64,000 bases of DNA. Source: an uncultured Candidatus Saccharibacteria bacterium (GTDB taxonomy: Bacteria; Patescibacteriota; Saccharimonadia; Saccharimonadales; CAIOMD01). Location of the stretch: positions 516,284 through 580,283 of the forward strand of contig OY970318.1 of NCBI GenBank assembly GCA_963716565.1. The letters run 5' to 3'. The notes beneath the pieces are model-generated. The model was not told the DNA's origin. It saw only the letters and a program-made list of their open reading frames with translations, and ran no database searches. Shown piece after piece: positions 52,343 through 57,886 of the stretch. The number at the start of each line of letters is the position of its first letter. The first letter of the stretch is position 1. Position numbers and translations under genes: made by a program.

Positions 52343-53692
52343 TCAAGATTTGGTTTTAATAATTTGTGTAACTTTTTTAACGTAACTATCTAATTTTTCT
52401 TTGGTGTCGGCTTCGGCATTTAGGCGCAACAACGGCTCGGTATTGCTGGGCCGCACATTAAACCAGCCATCTTTAAAAGTTAAGGTAACACCATCCAACC
52501 AATCAACTTCTGCGCCTCCAAAAGAATCGGCGAGTTTTTTCATGGTAGCTTCTTTATCGGTTACTTCAAAATTAGTTTCTTCGATTGAGTAGTATTTTCT
52601 GAATCTGTCGGCCAGCTTACTGAGTTTTGTATTGCTTTTACATAGCAATGCCAGTGCCACTATGGCAGAAATCAAGCCACTGTCGGCCATAAAATTATCT
52701 TTGAAGTAGTAATGATGGCTGTGTTCGCCAGCAAACAAAGCATTGTGGGTACGCATATCGTCTTTGATTATGCTATGCCCAACCCTTGTGCGAACAGCCT
52801 TACCGCCATGTTTTTCGATAGCTTCGCGGGCCACACGGCCAACGATAGCGTTATACAAAATGGTCGAACCAGGCTTTTTACCTAAAAAGTATTCGGCCAA
52901 TATAGCGGTCATTACGGTCCCACTTATGGGCTCACCTTTTTCGTCTACCAATACCGCTCGGTCGCCGTCACCGTCGAAGGCTAAACCAGCGTCGCATTTT
53001 TGATCTTTTACAACTCTAATTAAATCTTGGAGGTTCTTAGATTCTATAGGGCTGGCCGGATGATTCGGAAAAGTGCCATCTAGCTCAAAATACATTTCGG
53101 TTACTTCAAAAGGCACATAGGGCTCAAGTTCGGGGAACACCTTGCCCATCATGCCATTGCCAGCATCAACGGCAATTTTTAATGGCTTTAAATCGTTTAC
53201 GTCTACAAACGTTAAAACGTGGCTTATCCAATCTTCGGTAATATCTTGCTTGGTAACTGTGCCCTTTTGGGTAGACGTCTTAAATTTACCAGCTATAACG
53301 TTGTCTCTGATTTCGGCCAAACCAATATCTAAACTGATTGGCTTAGCTTCTTCTCGGCAAAATTTTATACCGTTATATTCGCCAGGGTTATGACTGGCGG
53401 TAATAACTGCTCCACCGGCTAAACCATAATTGCCGGCTGCAAAATAAACCATATCACTCGATATTAAGCCAACATCAATAACATCCCGCCCTTGCATGGT
53501 GAGCCCTTTTATCATGGCCTCCGCCAGCTCACTGCTATCTGGCCGCATATCGTGGCCAACTGCCACCGGCCCATCTTTTGGCAACCAATCAGCCATGGCT
53601 TTGCCTATTTTTTCTACCGTTTCTACAGTTAGCTCTGTGCCGACCTTGCCACGTACATCATAAGCTTTAAATATATTATTTATGTCATTCAT
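52343..53692 (-). CDS. Alpha-D-phosphohexomutase (phosphomannomutase/phosphoglucomutase or GlmM-type)
   Basis: 449 aa. Phosphoserine loop TASHNPGEYNGIKF and metal loop FDGDGDRAV. Confidence 0.85.
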   Translation of the reverse strand: MNDINNIFKAYDVRGKVGTELTVETVEKIGKAMADWLPKDGPVAVGHDMRPDSSELAEAMIKGLTMQGRDVIDVGLISSDMVYFAAGNYGLAGGAVITASHNPGEYNGIKFCREEAKPISLDIGLAEIRDNVIAGKFKTSTQKGTVTKQDITEDWISHVLTFVDVNDLKPLKIAVDAGNGMMGKVFPELEPYVPFEVTEMYFELDGTFPNHPASPIESKNLQDLIRVVKDQKCDAGLAFDGDGDRAVLVDEKGEPISGTVMTAILAEYFLGKKPGSTILYNAIVGRVAREAIEKHGGKAVRTRVGHSIIKDDMRTHNALFAGEHSHHYYFKDNFMADSGLISAIVALALLCKSNTKLSKLADRFRKYYSIEETNFEVTDKEATMKKLADSFGGAEVDWLDGVTLTFKDGWFNVRPSNTEPLLRLNAEADTKEKLDSYVKKVTQIIKTKS

Positions 53693-53759
53693 AGCACTCT
53701 ATTGTAGAGCATTTTGGTCTGTAATAAAAAAGTGGCAGGTATGACAGCATTATTATGTA

Positions 53760-53788
53760 TTGTCAATCTTTTCATTTAGGTGTATAAC
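53760..53788 (+). promoter_or_regulatory. Putative promoter P1 of island cassette 1
   Basis: TTGTCA-17 nt-TATAAC in the AT-rich spacer, about 90 nt upstream of the GTG at 53881. Confidence 0.45.
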
Positions 53789-53880
53789 ATAATTTATCTC
53801 GCTAAAGGGGTACGCCCTAATAGCAGACGCACCGCCAAGCTGGGGAGCTTGGCAAAACCGATCGAAAGGGGAAACCGACC

Positions 53881-54417
53881 GTGTGCAAACCAACAGGCGC
53901 AAGATGGTCAGACAATGGAGTGGCAGTAAGGACCGACCCCGAGAAGTACGGCCTGAATCGCGAACAGGCTATCGGGCTCGCCACGAACGTCCTGAAACTC
54001 CCACTCGTAGACCAGTTGCCTGAGGGCGACGAGGCCTGGTGCTACATCAGGGATGAGCACTTCGGTGGCAAACCCACCGAAAGAGCAGCACAGGAAGTAG
54101 AACAGAGTCTGGCAGCTCTGTTCGGCAAGGTGCATGGGAAAACCCATGACCTAGTGGTGTTCGAGAACGACACCAATGCATGCAGGGTGAAGCTGTCTTC
54201 GGTCAGTACTATCACTGCTGACAGCCGAGAGGTCATCGCGAGAGCAGTACACCGAGTCAAGGGCGTCGGCCTAATACGCATACGCGAAGGCAACATCTTC
54301 GCGTGGACGGAGAACGAAGCTGACGCGGCCAACCCCGACATCATGAGCGCCATCAGGAGCGCCGTCAGGGCCAACATGCCACTGGAAGCCTGCGTAGAGA
54401 TCGCGAACCAACCCTGA
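53881..54417 (+). CDS. Island ORF1, orphan 178-aa protein
   Basis: GTG start 8 nt after the SD GAAAGGGGA (53864-53872). GC-rich codons and a balanced, globular-looking composition. No motif I recognise. Confidence 0.55.
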   Translation: MCKPTGARWSDNGVAVRTDPEKYGLNREQAIGLATNVLKLPLVDQLPEGDEAWCYIRDEHFGGKPTERAAQEVEQSLAALFGKVHGKTHDLVVFENDTNACRVKLSSVSTITADSREVIARAVHRVKGVGLIRIREGNIFAWTENEADAANPDIMSAIRSAVRANMPLEACVEIANQP

Positions 54418-54493
54418 CCCTTTCGACACGTCCGAGTGACCATCGTGGCTACCACGTAGCATAGCTGGCCCCTTAGTCACTCAATATCCAAGT

Positions 54494-54522
54494 CCTGGGC
54501 GCCCCCAAAAGGGGTGCCCAGG
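54494..54522 (+). terminator. GC-rich stem-loop after island ORF1
   Basis: CCTGGGCGCCCC-CAAAA-GGGGTGCCCAGG (12 bp with one G-U pair). No clear U-tract follows, so its role as a terminator is uncertain. Confidence 0.4.
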
Positions 54523-54577
54523 ACGGTCGTATAAACTTTAAGCCACAATTTTGCATTACAGACAAGATGATTACATC

Positions 54578-54606
54578 TTGTTTTTTTATTTACTTTATTG
54601 TATAAT
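54578..54606 (+). promoter_or_regulatory. Putative promoter P2 of island cassette 2
   Basis: TTGTTT-17 nt-TATAAT (preceded by TG) in the AT-rich spacer. Confidence 0.5.
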
Positions 54607-54691
54607 ACTGCCCAATGATAGGGAGCATCTGCTCTCTTGAATTGTTCCGTGCCGAGCTGGGGAGCTTGGCAAGATCTAGAAAGGGGATACG

Positions 54692-55123
54692 GTGGCACAT
54701 CCAAGGATAGATTCCGGAGATGCACGAACAAAGGTACATCATTGTCGAGCCTCAAGGCCGGCAGAGGGTGGAGCCCTAAACGCCAGCAGGATGCAGACCG
54801 GCAGAGCCATGAAGCCACTACCGGCATCGTTGCATCCCGAAGAAGTGGTCAGCCGGCTAGATGAAGTCTGTGGGGGCAATCTGTCGGTGATCTTGGACGA
54901 TGGTAGCCAGGTAGAGCTCAAGTGCAAGGCGGCTACTGCTTCCGTCCGAGACAAGCTGTACGTATGCATAGAGTTTGCGGCCGAAGACTGCAAGCTGGAT
55001 CATCGTCGGCGCTGTTTCGACAAGGTCCTCAGTATCATCGAGGGCGTCATGGACGAACTTGGGGTAGACGTCGTGCTCAAGCAATACGAGCAAGAGGCCG
55101 AAGCTTCATCCCGGCCATCATAG
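54692..55123 (+). CDS. Island ORF2, orphan 143-aa protein (start uncertain)
   Basis: GTG 4 nt after the SD GAAAGGGGA (54679-54687), with a leader homologous to ORF1's. The first 39 aa or so are Arg-rich and atypical. Alternative ATG starts are at 54791 and 54809. Confidence 0.45.
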   Translation: MAHPRIDSGDARTKVHHCRASRPAEGGALNASRMQTGRAMKPLPASLHPEEVVSRLDEVCGGNLSVILDDGSQVELKCKAATASVRDKLYVCIEFAAEDCKLDHRRRCFDKVLSIIEGVMDELGVDVVLKQYEQEAEASSRPS

Positions 55124-55251
55124 GCCTTACCCTTTTCTAGAGCGTCACTGAGGTTTCTTGTGTGGCTTGAGGTCGGTGCTGGTATACGCGATATCAGCTT
55201 TCCCCGCTAACCTCTTAGCCCTAGTCAGAACATCTCACACGCCTTTCCGCT

Positions 55252-55305
55252 GAGCCCGCGGGCCTTCTCTACCACAGAGAGGGCCTCGGGCTCGAATTAT
55301 TTTTA
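55252..55305 (+). terminator. Intrinsic terminator of island cassette 2
   Basis: GAGCCCGCGGGCCTTCTCT-ACCAC-AGAGAGGGCCTCGGGCTC followed by GAATTATTTTT. Confidence 0.6.
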
Positions 55306-55424
55306 GCCTTATTTTGATTATTCTTGATTCTTTCTAAAGATATATGCAATTATTTAGTATCTCTAGGCAGTTCCTAGGGAAAGCACAATCTTTGTGCTGC
55401 ACATCAACATCGAAGGGAGTGCAA

Positions 55425-55769
55425 GTGGCACAGACCAAAAGAAGGCCTAAGCGATCGTCCGTCAAGCAGTGTGGCTCAGAGGTAACTCACATAGAGATGC
55501 CCCTGGGCGAGAAGGTATCATCTAAGCACGTCGCGGACATACTCCGCCAGTGCTTAGAAGACAACCCAATCGCTGAGCTCAGCCAACACGGTATCAGGCC
55601 AAAGGTCAAGCCCTTGAGCAACAAGATCTTGGTGATCCTAAGTCACCCCATCTCGAGTAAGCGCTTGGTCGACACGGTTAGGAACCGATTGCAGATGATA
55701 ATCGACGACGCCGTGGCCCAGATCAAGCTCGAAGCTACGCAGCAAAGCGCCATCCAGGCAACGGCGTAG
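55425..55769 (+). CDS. Island ORF3, orphan 114-aa protein
   Basis: I prefer the GTG at 55425, 5 nt after the SD GAAGGGAG (55412-55419). The ORF-track ATG at 55344 lies in the AT-rich promoter spacer. Basic N-terminus AQTKRRPKRSS. Confidence 0.5.
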   Translation: MAQTKRRPKRSSVKQCGSEVTHIEMPLGEKVSSKHVADILRQCLEDNPIAELSQHGIRPKVKPLSNKILVILSHPISSKRLVDTVRNRLQMIIDDAVAQIKLEATQQSAIQATA

Positions 55770-55791
55770 CCAGCCTCCCTCCGTGCACCAA

Positions 55792-55824
55792 CCCGGCGCC
55801 CCTATCGCAAACAGGGGCGCCGGG
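55792..55824 (+). terminator. GC-rich stem-loop after island ORF3
   Basis: CCCGGCGCCCC-TATCGCAAACA-GGGGCGCCGGG, a perfect 11-bp stem. It belongs to a block conserved with the ORF4 terminator. Confidence 0.5.
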
Positions 55825-55848
55825 CCCCTACCATTTAGCCTAAAATAT

Positions 55849-55877
55849 TTGACATTCGTTAATCAAAATTGTACAAA
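55849..55877 (+). promoter_or_regulatory. Putative promoter P4 of island cassette 4
   Basis: TTGACA-17 nt-TACAAA (preceded by TG). Confidence 0.45.
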
Positions 55878-55930
55878 ATATACATCTTGAGTTTTTAGCC
55901 AAGCGAACATCGAGCGGAAGGAGAGCTGCC

Positions 55931-56500
55931 GTGCCCGCCAATAGGTCGTTTACGATCGAACAACAAGGTCCATCGAAGGAGATCTGTCTAACCCTTCACG
56001 GTGATCTTCCTGGCAATCAGAGCGCCTGCAGACAGCTGGCCTCGCGGCTGCGAGGAGGAGAGATGAAGGCGCTTCTTACAGGAGTGAATCTAGACGGCGG
56101 CATCATTACGCTTAAACCCGTACCTGGGGCCGACACCGGCAGGCTGATCATCCAGACCAACAAGATCGCCAACGAGTGGCGCAAGGAGTTCTTTGGAGAT
56201 CAGAAGTACAAGGTCTACACGCAAGAAGGATCGAACACGATCATACTTGAGATCGCCGAGGCCACTCGCAAGAACCTGGGGCCTAGCAGCCTCGAAAGGC
56301 ACTACGGTGAGCTCGTTGTGGCTCTGAAGGGGAGACGGCAATACGCTACCTCTGCCATCAGCGATGTCACTCGCCTTAGGCACACCATCTTCGTAAACGC
56401 TTATCCTGGCCACCTTGAGCAGGTTCGCCAGGAAGTCGTCGAAACAGCGAAGGTTTGGCAATCCCAGTATTTCGGCGACAAACAGTACGTCCAGCTCTGA
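55931..56500 (+). CDS. Island ORF4, orphan 189-aa protein with internal duplication
   Basis: GTG 7 nt after the SD GGAAGGAG (55916-55923). Two halves of about 95 aa end in ANEWRKEFFGDQKYKVY and AKVWQSQYFGDKQYVQL. Confidence 0.55.
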   Translation: MPANRSFTIEQQGPSKEICLTLHGDLPGNQSACRQLASRLRGGEMKALLTGVNLDGGIITLKPVPGADTGRLIIQTNKIANEWRKEFFGDQKYKVYTQEGSNTIILEIAEATRKNLGPSSLERHYGELVVALKGRRQYATSAISDVTRLRHTIFVNAYPGHLEQVRQEVVETAKVWQSQYFGDKQYVQL

Positions 56501-56516
56501 CGGACTCAAGCACCAA

Positions 56517-56549
56517 CCCGGCCCCCTACTAGCTACTGGGGGCGCCGGG
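56517..56549 (+). terminator. GC-rich stem-loop after island ORF4 (right edge of island)
   Basis: CCCGGCCCCC-TACTAGCTACT-GGGGGCGCCGGG. It is homologous to the hairpin at 55792-55824. Confidence 0.5.
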
Positions 56550-56575
56550 CCCCCAACTTTAATAATAAGTTTATT

Positions 56576-56612
56576 TATCTAACATCCAACGTCTAATATC
56601 TATCGTCTATTT
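56576..56612. repeat. Family A element A5 (murE 3' end, island border)
   Basis: The minus strand reads AAATAGACGATAGATATTAGACGTTGGATGTTAGATA. murE reads AAT AGA CGA TAG and stops at the second TAG. Confidence 0.8.
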
Positions 56613-57886
56613 AGCAGTTCCCTGGCGACTTTTCTTTCGTCCCAGGGCATTTTTTTACCACCCATATTACGATAATCTTGATGCCCCATACCGGTAAGCA
56701 AAATCACATCACCCTCTTTGGCGGCTTTAAAAGCGGCTTTAATAGCCTCGTAGCGATCGGCAATTTCTACGTATTTATTCTTGCCACCTGACTTTTCTAT
56801 GCCCTCTCTTACGGCCGTTCGTATAACCTCGCCATCTTCGGTATAGGTTTCGTCGTCGGTTAAATAAACCATATCGGCTAATTTGGCGGCTATTTCGCCC
56901 ATAATTGGCCTTTTTGATTTGTCCCTATCGCCAGTGGCTCCAAAGACAATGCTAAGGTGCCCTTTTGTTAGCCCCTTAAGGGCCTTTAGAGTCCTTTCTA
57001 TGGCATCTGGGGTGTAACCGTAGTCTACGAGCACTGTAAAATCTTGGCCGCAGTCTACGGGCTCTAAACGGCCTGGCACAACTTTGACGTTGGCTACTCC
57101 TAAAGCAATTTGCTGGGGCTTTAGCCCGGCCGTCTGGCCAACTACCACTGCCATGGCCACGTTATAAGCGTTAAAATCGCCCACTAATTTAGTTGACACC
57201 CTTACAACTCCGTCGGTACTTATCAGCTTAAAAGAGGTGCCCTTGGGTTCAACTTTTAGTTCCTTTATCTGATGAGTGGCTTTGGCCTGGCCAATACTTT
57301 TTAGTTTAGTTTCTACCCTTTCGGCAAAATAGCTGTACCAATCGTCGTCGGCATTTAAAATTACTGTTTGCGGCTTAAAATCGGTGATTAACTTGGCTTT
57401 GGCGGCAGCATAATTTTCCATGGTTTTGTGATAATCCAGATGATCTTGGCTTAAATTAGTAACAGCGGCAATTTTTACAGGCACACCATATATACGAAAT
57501 TGATCGAGTGCATGGCTAGTAACTTCCAAAATAATCCAGTCAGCACGGGCCTTTTTGGCTTTTTTAAAAAAACTCTGCACCGACCAAGCGCTAGCTACAG
57601 TCATATGGGTGCGATTAAGCTTATTCACTCCGTTAATCTCGGTAAAAGCGGTGGTATAAACAGCTGTTTTGCAGCCCGCTGCCTTAAAAATTTCGTTTAT
57701 AAAGGCACAAGTTGTAGTTTTACCGTTGGTGCCTGTAACGGCAATAACGTTCATGCCCTTGGCCGGATATAAATTGACAAGATTTGCAGTTTTAGCCTTA
57801 CTCAAGCGACTAAAGTTCTCTATCTGGCGCATCTTTGATGGCGGAATCAATTTACGAATTATCTTCTTAACTTTACTCATTAGCAT
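56600..57886 (-). CDS. murE: Mur ligase, MurE-like (UDP-MurNAc-tripeptide synthetase)
   Basis: 428 aa. VIAVTGTNGKTTT, and a C-terminal domain with LLTGMGHQDY...PWDERKVARELL. The N-terminal domain is short. It could be another Mur-family member. Confidence 0.75.
   Translation of the reverse strand: MLMSKVKKIIRKLIPPSKMRQIENFSRLSKAKTANLVNLYPAKGMNVIAVTGTNGKTTTCAFINEIFKAAGCKTAVYTTAFTEINGVNKLNRTHMTVASAWSVQSFFKKAKKARADWIILEVTSHALDQFRIYGVPVKIAAVTNLSQDHLDYHKTMENYAAAKAKLITDFKPQTVILNADDDWYSYFAERVETKLKSIGQAKATHQIKELKVEPKGTSFKLISTDGVVRVSTKLVGDFNAYNVAMAVVVGQTAGLKPQQIALGVANVKVVPGRLEPVDCGQDFTVLVDYGYTPDAIERTLKALKGLTKGHLSIVFGATGDRDKSKRPIMGEIAAKLADMVYLTDDETYTEDGEVIRTAVREGIEKSGGKNKYVEIADRYEAIKAAFKAAKEGDVILLTGMGHQDYRNMGGKKMPWDERKVARELLNRR

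Follow-up and report, generated by a model that had tools for sequence, protein, structure and literature searches.

The question raised by this locus is why two neighbouring genes with unrelated products should be preceded by nearly the same short leader. The DNA analyzed here, called the window throughout, is a stretch of 64,000 nucleotides (nt) from an uncultured Candidatus Saccharibacteria bacterium (contig OY970318.1, positions 516,284 to 580,283), and the locus is an island of 2.8 kb within it (~53.75-56.58 kb) that holds four tandem plus-strand cassettes, c1 to c4, with orphan open reading frames (ORFs), with a phosphomannomutase-type gene (PMM) at 52343-53692 on one side and murE at 56600-57886 on the other, both on the minus strand. 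An original prediction, made from the letters alone, had described a leader module common to c1 and c2, composed of a hairpin with a GGGG loop, a Shine-Dalgarno (SD) sequence and a GTG start codon, and had suggested that it was a shared post-transcriptional control element. We found the hairpin, here denoted HP2, to be almost unchanged in three related genomes, and that sequence comparison makes it very likely that HP2 is a genuine RNA control element specific to this lineage. The cassette ORFs and the two hairpins of the window are as follows.

53881-54417 (+): c1 ORF, 178 amino acids (aa), GTG start, with a codon-position GC pattern that indicates real coding
54692-55123 (+): c2 ORF, 143 aa, GTG start, an orphan family of three members
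55425-55769 (+): c3 ORF, GTG start
55931-56500 (+): c4 ORF, GTG start
53834-53853 (+): HP2 copy 1, in the c1 leader, GCCAAGCU-GGGG-AGCUUGGC followed by AAAAC; 68 bits with the covariance model
54651-54670 (+): HP2 copy 2, in the c2 leader, GCCGAGCU-GGGG-AGCUUGGC with one G.U pair; 58 bits with the covariance model

Conservation of HP2 in the window and in related genomes

A block of 22 nt, GCC(A/G)AGCTGGGGAGCTTGGCAA, is common to positions 53834-53855 and 54651-54672 with a single mismatch, and has no third site in the window. The exact 18-mer AGCTGGGGAGCTTGGCAA occurs at two sites in the 64 kb, and still at two when up to three mismatches are allowed; shuffling gave an expectation of 0.07, and two matches were reached in 0 of 100 shuffles. 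The quoted leader sequences do exist in the window, the first at 53832-53883 as had been claimed, and the second ending at 54694 as given but starting at 54648 instead of 54649. The stem, which had been described as 7 bp, is 8 bp (GCCAAGCT/AGCTTGGC) and makes, with the GGGG loop, a hairpin of 20 bases overall, to which c2-type copies can add a ninth pair, U-A, formed in copy 2 by T54650 and A54671. It was correctly noted that the A-to-G change of copy 2 gives a G.U pair and preserves the stem, and that an identical SD (GAAAGGGGA) and then GTG follow both copies, with the SD at 53864-53872 and 54679-54687, GTG at 53881 and 54692, and a spacing of 11-16 nt between HP2 and the SD. That the two downstream ORFs are unrelated also held, with a BLASTP E-value of 12 and an hhalign profile-profile probability of 0.1%, and paralogy of c1 and c2 was rejected as the cause of the shared leader because no similarity was seen at the level of either sequence or profile. 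Folding in silico, which had been put forward as a check, formed HP2 in every context examined, with a pair probability of ~1.0 in full-length mRNA folds; it also formed in short local folds, in which the overall stability was no better than that of shuffles (z = -0.8 and -0.7). As these local z-scores are unremarkable, the case for HP2 stands on the comparison between genomes and not on folding energy.

Four orthologous HP2 copies were found on three related metagenomic contigs, and two more distant relatives of the locus served for comparison.

L015: JGI contig, its MurE in the same 90%-identity cluster as the window MurE; HP2 at 2486-2467, upstream of the c2 orthologue
L020: ENA contig, PMM 88% identical; HP2 at 9855-9836, upstream of the c1 orthologue, and at 9038-9019, upstream of the c2 orthologue
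L021: JGI contig, PMM 85% identical; HP2 at 1167-1148, upstream of the c1 orthologue
L023: more distant, PMM 73% identical
L024: more distant, PMM 71% identical

Together with the window this gives six copies in four genomes, which in the public data reached represent three orthologous sets. All six stand in front of an ORF of the c1 or c2 family, and their scores with the covariance model range over 58-70 bits, the E-values of this short model being rough. Mean pairwise identity within HP2 was 97% for the c1 trio and 93% for the c2 trio, compared to 87 and 84% for the promoters, 83 and 60% for the leader upstream of HP2, and 57 and 48% for the segment between HP2 and the start codon. HP2 is accordingly the most conserved segment of the whole locus, and at the level of sequence this comparison shows it to be under stronger purifying selection than either promoters or genes. 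The more distant L023 keeps the c1 promoter and lacks HP2, which would confine HP2 to the clade with a PMM identity of at least 85%.

Throughout the six copies, 48 of 48 stem cells pair. Only three substitutions were seen, one being A to G and two C to U (once in the 5' arm, once in the 3' arm); read on the plus-strand RNA each of them results in G.U pairing, and read on the minus strand each would be an A.C mismatch. The GGGG loop, which is asymmetric, is unchanged in all copies, and flank conservation is one-sided, being confined to the 3' flank (AAAAC), with the sequence after HP2 reading AAAAC, AAGAU or UAAAAC. Five copies carry GGGGA in the SD, that of L015 c2 being GAGGAG. No substitution is shared by both copies of one genome, so that gene conversion is not indicated.

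HP2 had been placed in the transcribed leader, and this agreed well with a -35/-10 pair that lies upstream of it and is invariant in four genomes, thereby positioning HP2 in the 5' untranslated region (UTR). The elements of the transcripts around HP2 are listed here.

53760-53788 (+): c1 promoter, -35 TTGTCA (53760-53765), 17-nt spacer, -10 TATAAC (53783-53788), with GGTG before the -10
54601-54606 (+): c2 promoter -10, TATAAT with TTG before it, conserved in L015 and L020
53798-53826 (+): first leader hairpin (HP1) of c1, outer stem GCUA/UAGC and inner GGGG-UACG-CCCU, from the full-length mRNA fold
54613-54644 (+): HP1 of c2, AGGGAGC-AUCU-GCUCUCU plus an outer stem, from the fold
55382-55398 (+): c3 leader hairpin, AGCACAA-ucu-UUGUGCU, at the position equivalent to HP2
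54434-54482 (+): c1 3' UTR element, outer stem GAGUGAC...GUCACUC, from an alignment of the window with L015 and L021 and its consensus fold
54492-54591 (+): c1 3' end, a GC-rich hairpin (54492-54524) without a U run, then an AT-rich terminator hairpin (54560-54583) with T7

The promoter blocks TTGTCAAT and AGGTGTATAAC of the window recur unchanged in L020 and L021 and also in L023, which is more distant; the c1 promoter was not listed by a simple promoter scanner. Transcription would start at about 53796 for c1 and 54614 for c2, and HP2 lies ~38 nt downstream of the promoter, at +38/+39 from the putative transcription start site (TSS) in both genes. The helices surrounding HP2 behave differently from it. 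HP1 of c1 differs from that of c2, and within c1 its outer stem GCUA/UAGC has become GCCA/UGGC in L020, a compensatory change, with its inner hairpin GGGG-UACG-CCCU appearing as GGGG-UUCG-CCCC in L021, which preserves the loop class. The c3 leader also has two hairpins, as in c1 and c2, and at the place equivalent to HP2 the L020 orthologue (8299-8284, minus strand) reads ACAUGG-uuua-CCAUGU, with the fold kept and the stem sequence wholly different. The c1 terminator stem ACAAGAT/ATCTTGT is ACAAGAC/GTCTTGT in L020, a compensatory change from U-A to C-G. Since the c3 hairpin, the HP1 outer stem and the terminator stem all compensate at the same divergence, the invariance of HP2 points to a constraint on its sequence and not to a lack of time. 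As for the 3' UTRs, the c1 element has an invariant outer stem and about promoter-like conservation and is absent from L020, the T run of the c1 terminator overlaps the c2 -35 region, and the c2 3' UTR (55124-55295) is long and partly conserved.

The search for further copies, which had also been proposed as a check, brought no non-orthologous copy in the remaining 61 kb of the window, the flanks of the relatives, or the genome, metagenome and viral collections. A covariance model (R1), used with filters off, returned the two island copies and no others in the 64-kb window, and in 52 kb from the relatives nothing beyond the four orthologous copies. The exact 18-mer gave 14 single matches in 185,579 species genomes, in unrelated taxa and at about the chance number, the 20-mer gave 4 matches in JGI metagenomes, all inside unrelated coding sequences, and the 15-mer gave 60 single matches in IMG/VR. 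All of these outside matches lacked the module, scoring 15-33 bits as opposed to 58-70 bits for true copies. Within the collections searched, HP2 thus appears to be a two-gene element and not a regulon-wide one.

Known families did not account for HP2. Rfam 15 at the gathering threshold found one tRNA only in the whole window, and at E<=5 the island gave only a spurious match to a long non-coding RNA, with 16 bits against a gathering score of 60. A terminator or attenuator was rejected, as no U run follows HP2 in any of the six copies and the terminator scan did not list it, and so was a dispersed palindrome resembling repetitive extragenic palindromes (REP) or miniature inverted-repeat transposable elements (MITE), as the covariance model gave no dispersed copies in the window or the relatives. 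A CsrA/RsmA loop site was likewise set aside, since the loop is GGGG, in which a GGA would arise solely on opening of the closing U-A pair, and it lacks the upstream A; a second GGA is present ~23-27 nt from the loop, in the GGGGA of the SD in five copies and in the GAGGAG of L015. With regard to a role on the minus strand, also rejected, PMM starts 140 nt away with an apparent -10 of its own at the ATG, and the c2 copy has no minus-strand neighbour. The literature on Saccharibacteria leaders, islands or CsrA yielded nothing usable.

Predicted pairing of the SD region with a post-stop box

The suggestion that the leader is a control element gained a component that had been missed earlier and that alters its probable mechanism. 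The SD region of the c1, c2 and c3 mRNAs is complementary, over 8-12 nt, to a box 0-9 nt past the stop codon of the same gene. The partners, including the ribosome binding sites (RBS) of the window and the corresponding segments of the relatives, are the following.

53862-53872 (+): c1 RBS, SD GAAAGGGGA at 53864-53872, with TCGAAAGGG at 53862-53870 complementing the post-stop box
54418-54426 (+): c1 post-stop anti-SD box CCCTTTCGA, directly after TGA, a 9-nt perfect complement of 53862-53870
54675-54687 (+): c2 RBS, SD GAAAGGGGA at 54679-54687, with TCTAGAAAGGG at 54675-54685 complementing the post-stop box
55130-55141 (+): c2 post-stop anti-SD box CCCTTTTCTAGA, 6 nt past TAG, pairing with 54675-54685 with one bulged U
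55412-55419 (+): c3 SD GAAGGGAG, pairing with its post-stop box with one mismatch
55774-55783 (+): c3 post-stop anti-SD box CCTCCCTCCG
L020 c1: SD region AGAAAGGGG, post-stop box CCCCTTTCT
L021 c1: SD region ATCGAAAG, post-stop box CTTTCGAT
L015 c2: SD region AGAAGAGGA, post-stop box TCCTCTTCT
L020 c3: SD region ACGAAGGGAG, post-stop box CTCCCTTCGT, a 10-nt perfect complement reached in 1 of 2000 shuffles
L020 c2: 9-nt complement GGGGAGAAA/TTTCTCCCC, with the box ~70 nt into the 3' UTR

Perfect complements of 8-10 nt (12 nt with a bulge) were present in 6 of the 9 cassettes of the c1-c3 families, and the frequency of the SD:box matches among shuffles was 1-32 in 2000 (0.0005-0.016), being 8 in 2000 for c1 of the window. 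For the 44 host genes of the window, the complement between SD and tail never reached 8 nt, with a maximum of 7. When the c2 SD region was compared against 15 tails, the duplex with its own box, at -26.6 kcal/mol, ranked first. From one orthologue to another the partners covary, also outside the SD core. When full-length transcripts were folded, the SD:tail helix appeared in the minimum free energy (MFE) structure of 6 of 8, with 9-12 expected pairs, and for c1 and c2 of the window in both the MFE and the centroid structure; the detail of MFE structures is uncertain for RNAs of ~700 nt, the SD:tail helices nonetheless being explicit perfect complements. The full-length c1 and c2 mRNAs also folded more stably than any of their 20 shuffles, with z = -4.3 and -2.8, and HP2 lies 5-8 nt upstream of the helix between SD and post-stop box. 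The predicted outcome of such pairing is an mRNA that closes itself and hides its RBS. A ribosome terminating at the stop codon, right next to the box, would presumably melt the helix and thereby free the SD.

Possible readings of the hairpin

We tentatively favour the reading that HP2 is a cis-acting RNA hairpin, recognized sequence-specifically by a trans factor next to the masked RBS. That it would act in RNA is suggested by the substitutions, which are wobble pairs on the sense strand only, by the asymmetric invariant loop with its 3'-only conserved flank, and by the covarying helices around it; that a trans factor might be involved is suggested by the invariance of stem and GGGG loop, whereas the c3 hairpin keeps its fold only. 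In the proposed mechanism HP2 would sit in the 5' leaders of two adjacent monocistronic genes, c1 and c2, where a conserved factor acting in trans, be it a protein that binds RNA or an RNA that base-pairs with it, would read it and co-regulate the two genes. It would do so beside an RBS that in the finished transcript is masked by pairing with the post-stop box, and the factor at HP2, or a ribosome docking on the exposed SD-like GGGGA, would decide between translation and degradation of the closed mRNA. As for the factor itself, c1 and c2 were rejected as candidates, both being hypervariable; c3 shows conservation and a basic N-terminus, yet L015 retains HP2 and has no c3.

Several points weigh against this reading. 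No trans factor was identified, and an invariant 8-bp stem is unusual in protein-RNA recognition and typical of DNA operators. The c2 leader of L015 keeps HP2 with a different SD, which would make the link between HP2 and the SD a loose one, and the TSS positions are placed by promoter consensus only. Within the genome itself, the copy searches covered 64 kb of 799 kb (8%). None of the six copies has a two-sided compensatory change; the three wobble changes are the sole RNA-structure support that HP2 itself offers, and would arise by chance with a probability of roughly 0.005-0.125, depending on the substitution model. The covariation anticipated for additional homologues was limited to these three one-sided changes. 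With the stem being frozen and two-sided covariation lacking, it seems that the sequence itself is read and not the fold alone. The idea of a shared post-transcriptional cis element accordingly stands in part, with leader placement, conservation, G.U-preserving changes and unrelated ORFs speaking for it, and the lack of extra copies and of two-sided covariation speaking against it.

A purely structural hairpin with no dedicated trans factor, acting as an insulator or 5' stabilizer or as a ribosome standby site, is a possible explanation that we nevertheless regard as rather doubtful. A stable hairpin would block 5'-to-3' decay and keep upstream sequence off the RBS, and the c3 hairpin, which at the equivalent position keeps the fold and not the sequence, would imply that the architecture needs a hairpin whatever its sequence. 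Neither did the collections searched contain further copies that would suggest a regulon. For a standby site, the loop with its closing base gives GGGGA, the SD core, at a distance of 11-16 nt to the SD that corresponds to the 5' edge of the 30S footprint, while in the predicted folds the SD proper is engaged by the post-stop box. An SD mimic is, however, no general need, as the loops of the c3 hairpins (UCU and UUUA) are not SD-like, and a structural role would leave it unexplained why eight stem pairs should be frozen across two old paralogous leaders and four genomes when other stems covary. The frozen sequence could alternatively be that of a DNA operator, in which the 8-4-8 palindrome GCCAAGCT-N4-AGCTTGGC would bind a dimeric transcription factor and form an elongation roadblock at c1 and c2. 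HP2 is indeed an 8-4-8 inverted repeat of near-perfect dyad symmetry, its half-site is invariant without compensatory changes, and it lies at equal distance from the putative TSS (+38/+39) in both genes. We still find an operator unlikely, as the site (~+38 to +57) is well downstream of the promoter with no overlap and the island has no regulator gene linked to it, as the central GGGG is asymmetric yet invariant where operator spacers usually vary freely, as flank conservation is one-sided and the sense RNA is the only strand on which the three substitutions all fit wobble pairing, and as the surrounding leader is full of RNA helices with covariation support.

It is improbable that HP2 is a functionless relic, either a remnant of cassette duplication in which recombination or conversion has kept the copies alike, or one end of a small element that moves or recombines. 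The cassettes are indeed mosaic, with the c2 terminator of L015 joined to a c4-type promoter and a different ORF, a 51-nt terminator block common to c3 and c4, an insertion sequence (IS) element in the L021 island, and ORFs that have the SD region and the post-stop box as short inverted repeats on either side. Yet the block of identity has sharp edges and at just 22 nt falls short of a conversion tract, the two copies of one genome have no derived substitution in common, dispersed copies such as a REP or MITE would have are missing, no recombinase was seen in the island, and a hairpin that exceeds all its surroundings in conservation where housekeeping genes differ by 20% argues for selection. 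Public gene calls raise one more explanation, namely that HP2 encodes a conserved N-terminal extension, e.g. MPSWGAWQ, since P0130 (178 aa, L015) and P0129 (224 aa, L020) are called with starts upstream of HP2. This is highly improbable: the frames differ, giving PSWGAWQ in L015 and in an out-of-frame ORF of the window and AKLGSLAK in L020 and in c1 of the window, HP2 of the window is out of frame with c2, and a strong SD and GTG come after HP2 in 6 of 6 copies. The public c2 calls also disagree with each other (78 aa in the NCBI record, 178 aa at L015 1952-2488 and 224 aa at L020 8559-9233), those of L015 and L020 traversing HP2 in different frames. The peptide after the SD and GTG is conserved, with the c2 N-terminus preserved through synonymous changes, which supports the 143-aa reading of c2.

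Going beyond the trans-factor reading of HP2, a bolder proposal, for which we hold out only slight hope, would be that c1-c3 represent an undescribed class of self-closing mRNAs, in which the post-stop box masks the gene's own SD and HP2 is the operator of a lineage-specific RNA-binding regulator. Only a terminating or co-transcribing ribosome would then re-open the RBS of the closed mRNA. If true, episymbiotic Saccharibacteria would in this way keep hypervariable GC-rich orphan proteins, which may be toxic or serve in host interaction, under tight control of a switch-like kind.

The cassette island and known systems

The source contig measures 799,209 bp, and among named PMM homologues the closest ones belong to Saccharimonadales / Patescibacteria. 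The island, with 53-59% GC against a window mean of 44%, is the sole sustained GC-rich stretch of the window. Its ORFs have a GC content at third codon positions (GC3) of 0.60-0.73 as opposed to 0.41-0.50 in five flanking or nearby host genes, with a genuine coding pattern, and every one of them is preceded by an AT-rich region of its own and followed by a GC-rich 3' hairpin. The products are hydrophilic, of 114-189 aa, and gave no significant match in Pfam, PHROGs, PADLOC or NCBIfam. An exhaustive HMMER search of 1.84 billion representatives found only P0126 and P0127 as c1 homologues, a profile search found three members only for the c2 family, and no family member of either was seen outside the lineage in protein sets of 5.8 billion and 1.84 billion; P0128 was rejected as a low-complexity artefact. 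Phage DNA gave no matches, and viral contigs no convincing relatives, the sole match being 37 aa of c4 at 46% identity. The AlphaFold2 model of c1 was poor (pLDDT 41), and that of c2, built on a three-sequence alignment, reached pLDDT 78 and was confident for residues ~30-140, with a predicted beta-alpha-beta3 fold followed by a long helix. Compared with PDB and BFVD, the c2 model had no match at E<0.001 or TM>0.5, and a weak START/Bet v 1-like resemblance at TM 0.35-0.4.

Cassette genes adjoin murE and/or PMM in L015, L020, L021 and L023, with the same orientation as in the window, and L024 has one small gene at the locus, also in that orientation. L020 contains c1, c2 and c3 and no c4; L015 contains a partial c1 and c2, after which the c2 terminator is joined directly to a c4-type promoter that drives a different ORF of 106 aa; L021 has an IS element after c1; and L023 has four other ORFs that are GC3-rich or unrelated. 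The IS-like insertion of L021 (1-470) lies just after the start of the c2 promoter region, with the island truncated on that contig, and its opposite-strand ORF resembles an rve-type transposase by eye. Protein identity to the window is 29% for c1, except for the partial c1 of L015 at 67%, and 22-44% for c2. Between the window and L020, nucleotide identity is 80% for PMM, 81% for murE and 79% for c3, and 40 and 51% for the coding sequences of c1 and c2, which thus diverge far faster than the flanking genes, in cassettes of mosaic content.

The murE-PMM interval is a lineage-wide hot spot for tandem monocistronic orphan cassettes in these Saccharimonadales (window 53750-56580, L015 1312-3126, L020 7857-10000, L021 1-1309, L023 2714-5195 and L024 3676-5172), with ORFs mostly at GC3 0.55-0.75 versus 0.32-0.50 in host genes, and GTG starts throughout the close clade. 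Recent horizontal transfer as the whole story was rejected, since relatives down to 71-73% PMM identity hold small opposite-strand genes there, mostly GC3-rich. Two extra small opposite-strand genes (106 and 104 aa) lie between PMM and groES in L020 (11416-12139), have no HP2-like leader and are absent from the window. The terminator regions of c3 and c4 (55785-55835 and 56510-56560) have a 51-nt block in common at 76% identity, GCACCAACCCGGCGCCCC...GGGGCGCCGGGCCCC, and in L015 and L020 it is this block, too, that ends the island, beside the murE stop. Integron gene cassettes were rejected, as c1 and c2 have conserved -35/-10 boxes of their own, attC core sites and an integrase gene not having been searched for; upstream of c4, a TTGACA-containing block recurs in L015, and the cassette 3' hairpins are T-run terminators or simple GC stems.

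Many host genes have -10-like boxes, TATAAT or TACAAT, 7-10 nt before the ATG and without an SD (examples at 53692, 5759, 9815, 28815, 40455, 57886 and 63804), and GGAG is found upstream in only ~10 of 52 window genes. This suggests that leaderless or very-short-leader mRNAs are widespread in this genome, and the long SD-led island leaders look atypical for it. A genome of 0.8 Mb that appears to start many genes right at a -10-like box, with no obvious SD, would in contrast equip its fast-evolving orphan genes with structured leaders of ~85 nt, strong SDs, GTG starts, anti-SD boxes and long conserved 3' UTRs. To our knowledge, almost nothing is known about post-transcriptional control in the candidate phyla radiation (CPR, Patescibacteria). 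Should HP2 be a recognition site, it would offer a handle for finding an RNA-binding regulator in Saccharibacteria and help to explain the role of the hypervariable proteins.

Compared with known systems, HP2 bears partial likeness to several. The ompA and aprE leaders carry 5'-terminal stabilizer hairpins and tisB uses ribosome standby; like these, the leaders studied here place a stable stem-loop upstream of an A-rich linker and SD, with an exposed purine patch beside a structured RBS, but unlike the ompA and aprE stabilizers HP2 is not 5'-terminal, as HP1 comes first, and its stem is conserved in sequence and not in stability alone. Dual CsrA/RsmA sites combine a GGA in a hairpin loop (consensus ANGGA) with a GGA overlapping the SD, 10-63 nt apart. 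The two GGGGA motifs here, in hairpin and SD, are 23-27 nt apart, a span that a CsrA dimer can bridge, whereas the HP2 loop is GGGG with the A of the GGA paired, departs from ANGGA, and has a frozen stem that CsrA does not need. Type I toxin mRNAs (hok fbi/tac and relatives) use long-distance 5'-3' locking and encode short hydrophobic peptides. The c1 and c2 mRNAs are similarly predicted to be closed end to end, very structured and with a hidden RBS, and have a weak GTG start, but their products are hydrophilic and not hydrophobic peptides under ~60 aa. The scanner found no promoter-like site for an antisense RNA on the island minus strand, the same scanner having missed the conserved plus-strand promoters.

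The closest likeness in architecture is to the 5'-3' UTR interaction of Staphylococcus aureus icaR mRNA, in which a 3' UTR motif is complementary to the SD region (PMC3868564), and to the 14-bp pairing of the 5' UTR with the 3' UTR in Bacillus subtilis hbs mRNA (PMC5737220). In c1-c3, as in these, a C/U-rich box in the 3' UTR complements the gene's own SD region, with predicted masking of the RBS and a highly structured leader. Unlike icaR and hbs, however, the box lies 0-9 nt past the stop codon and not deep in a long 3' UTR, the pairing recurs in three unrelated neighbouring genes and covaries with the SD flank of each, and a sequence-invariant HP2 stands just upstream of the closing helix, in a CPR host and in a system known here from sequence alone. 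The pairing of SD and post-stop box would extend the very short list of bacterial 5'-3' UTR interactions with several natural covarying cases. HP2 is best filed as a putative new lineage-restricted 5' UTR cis-regulatory stem-loop inside an icaR-like self-masking mRNA architecture, whose recurrence in three adjacent genes and placement directly at the stop codon are unusual.

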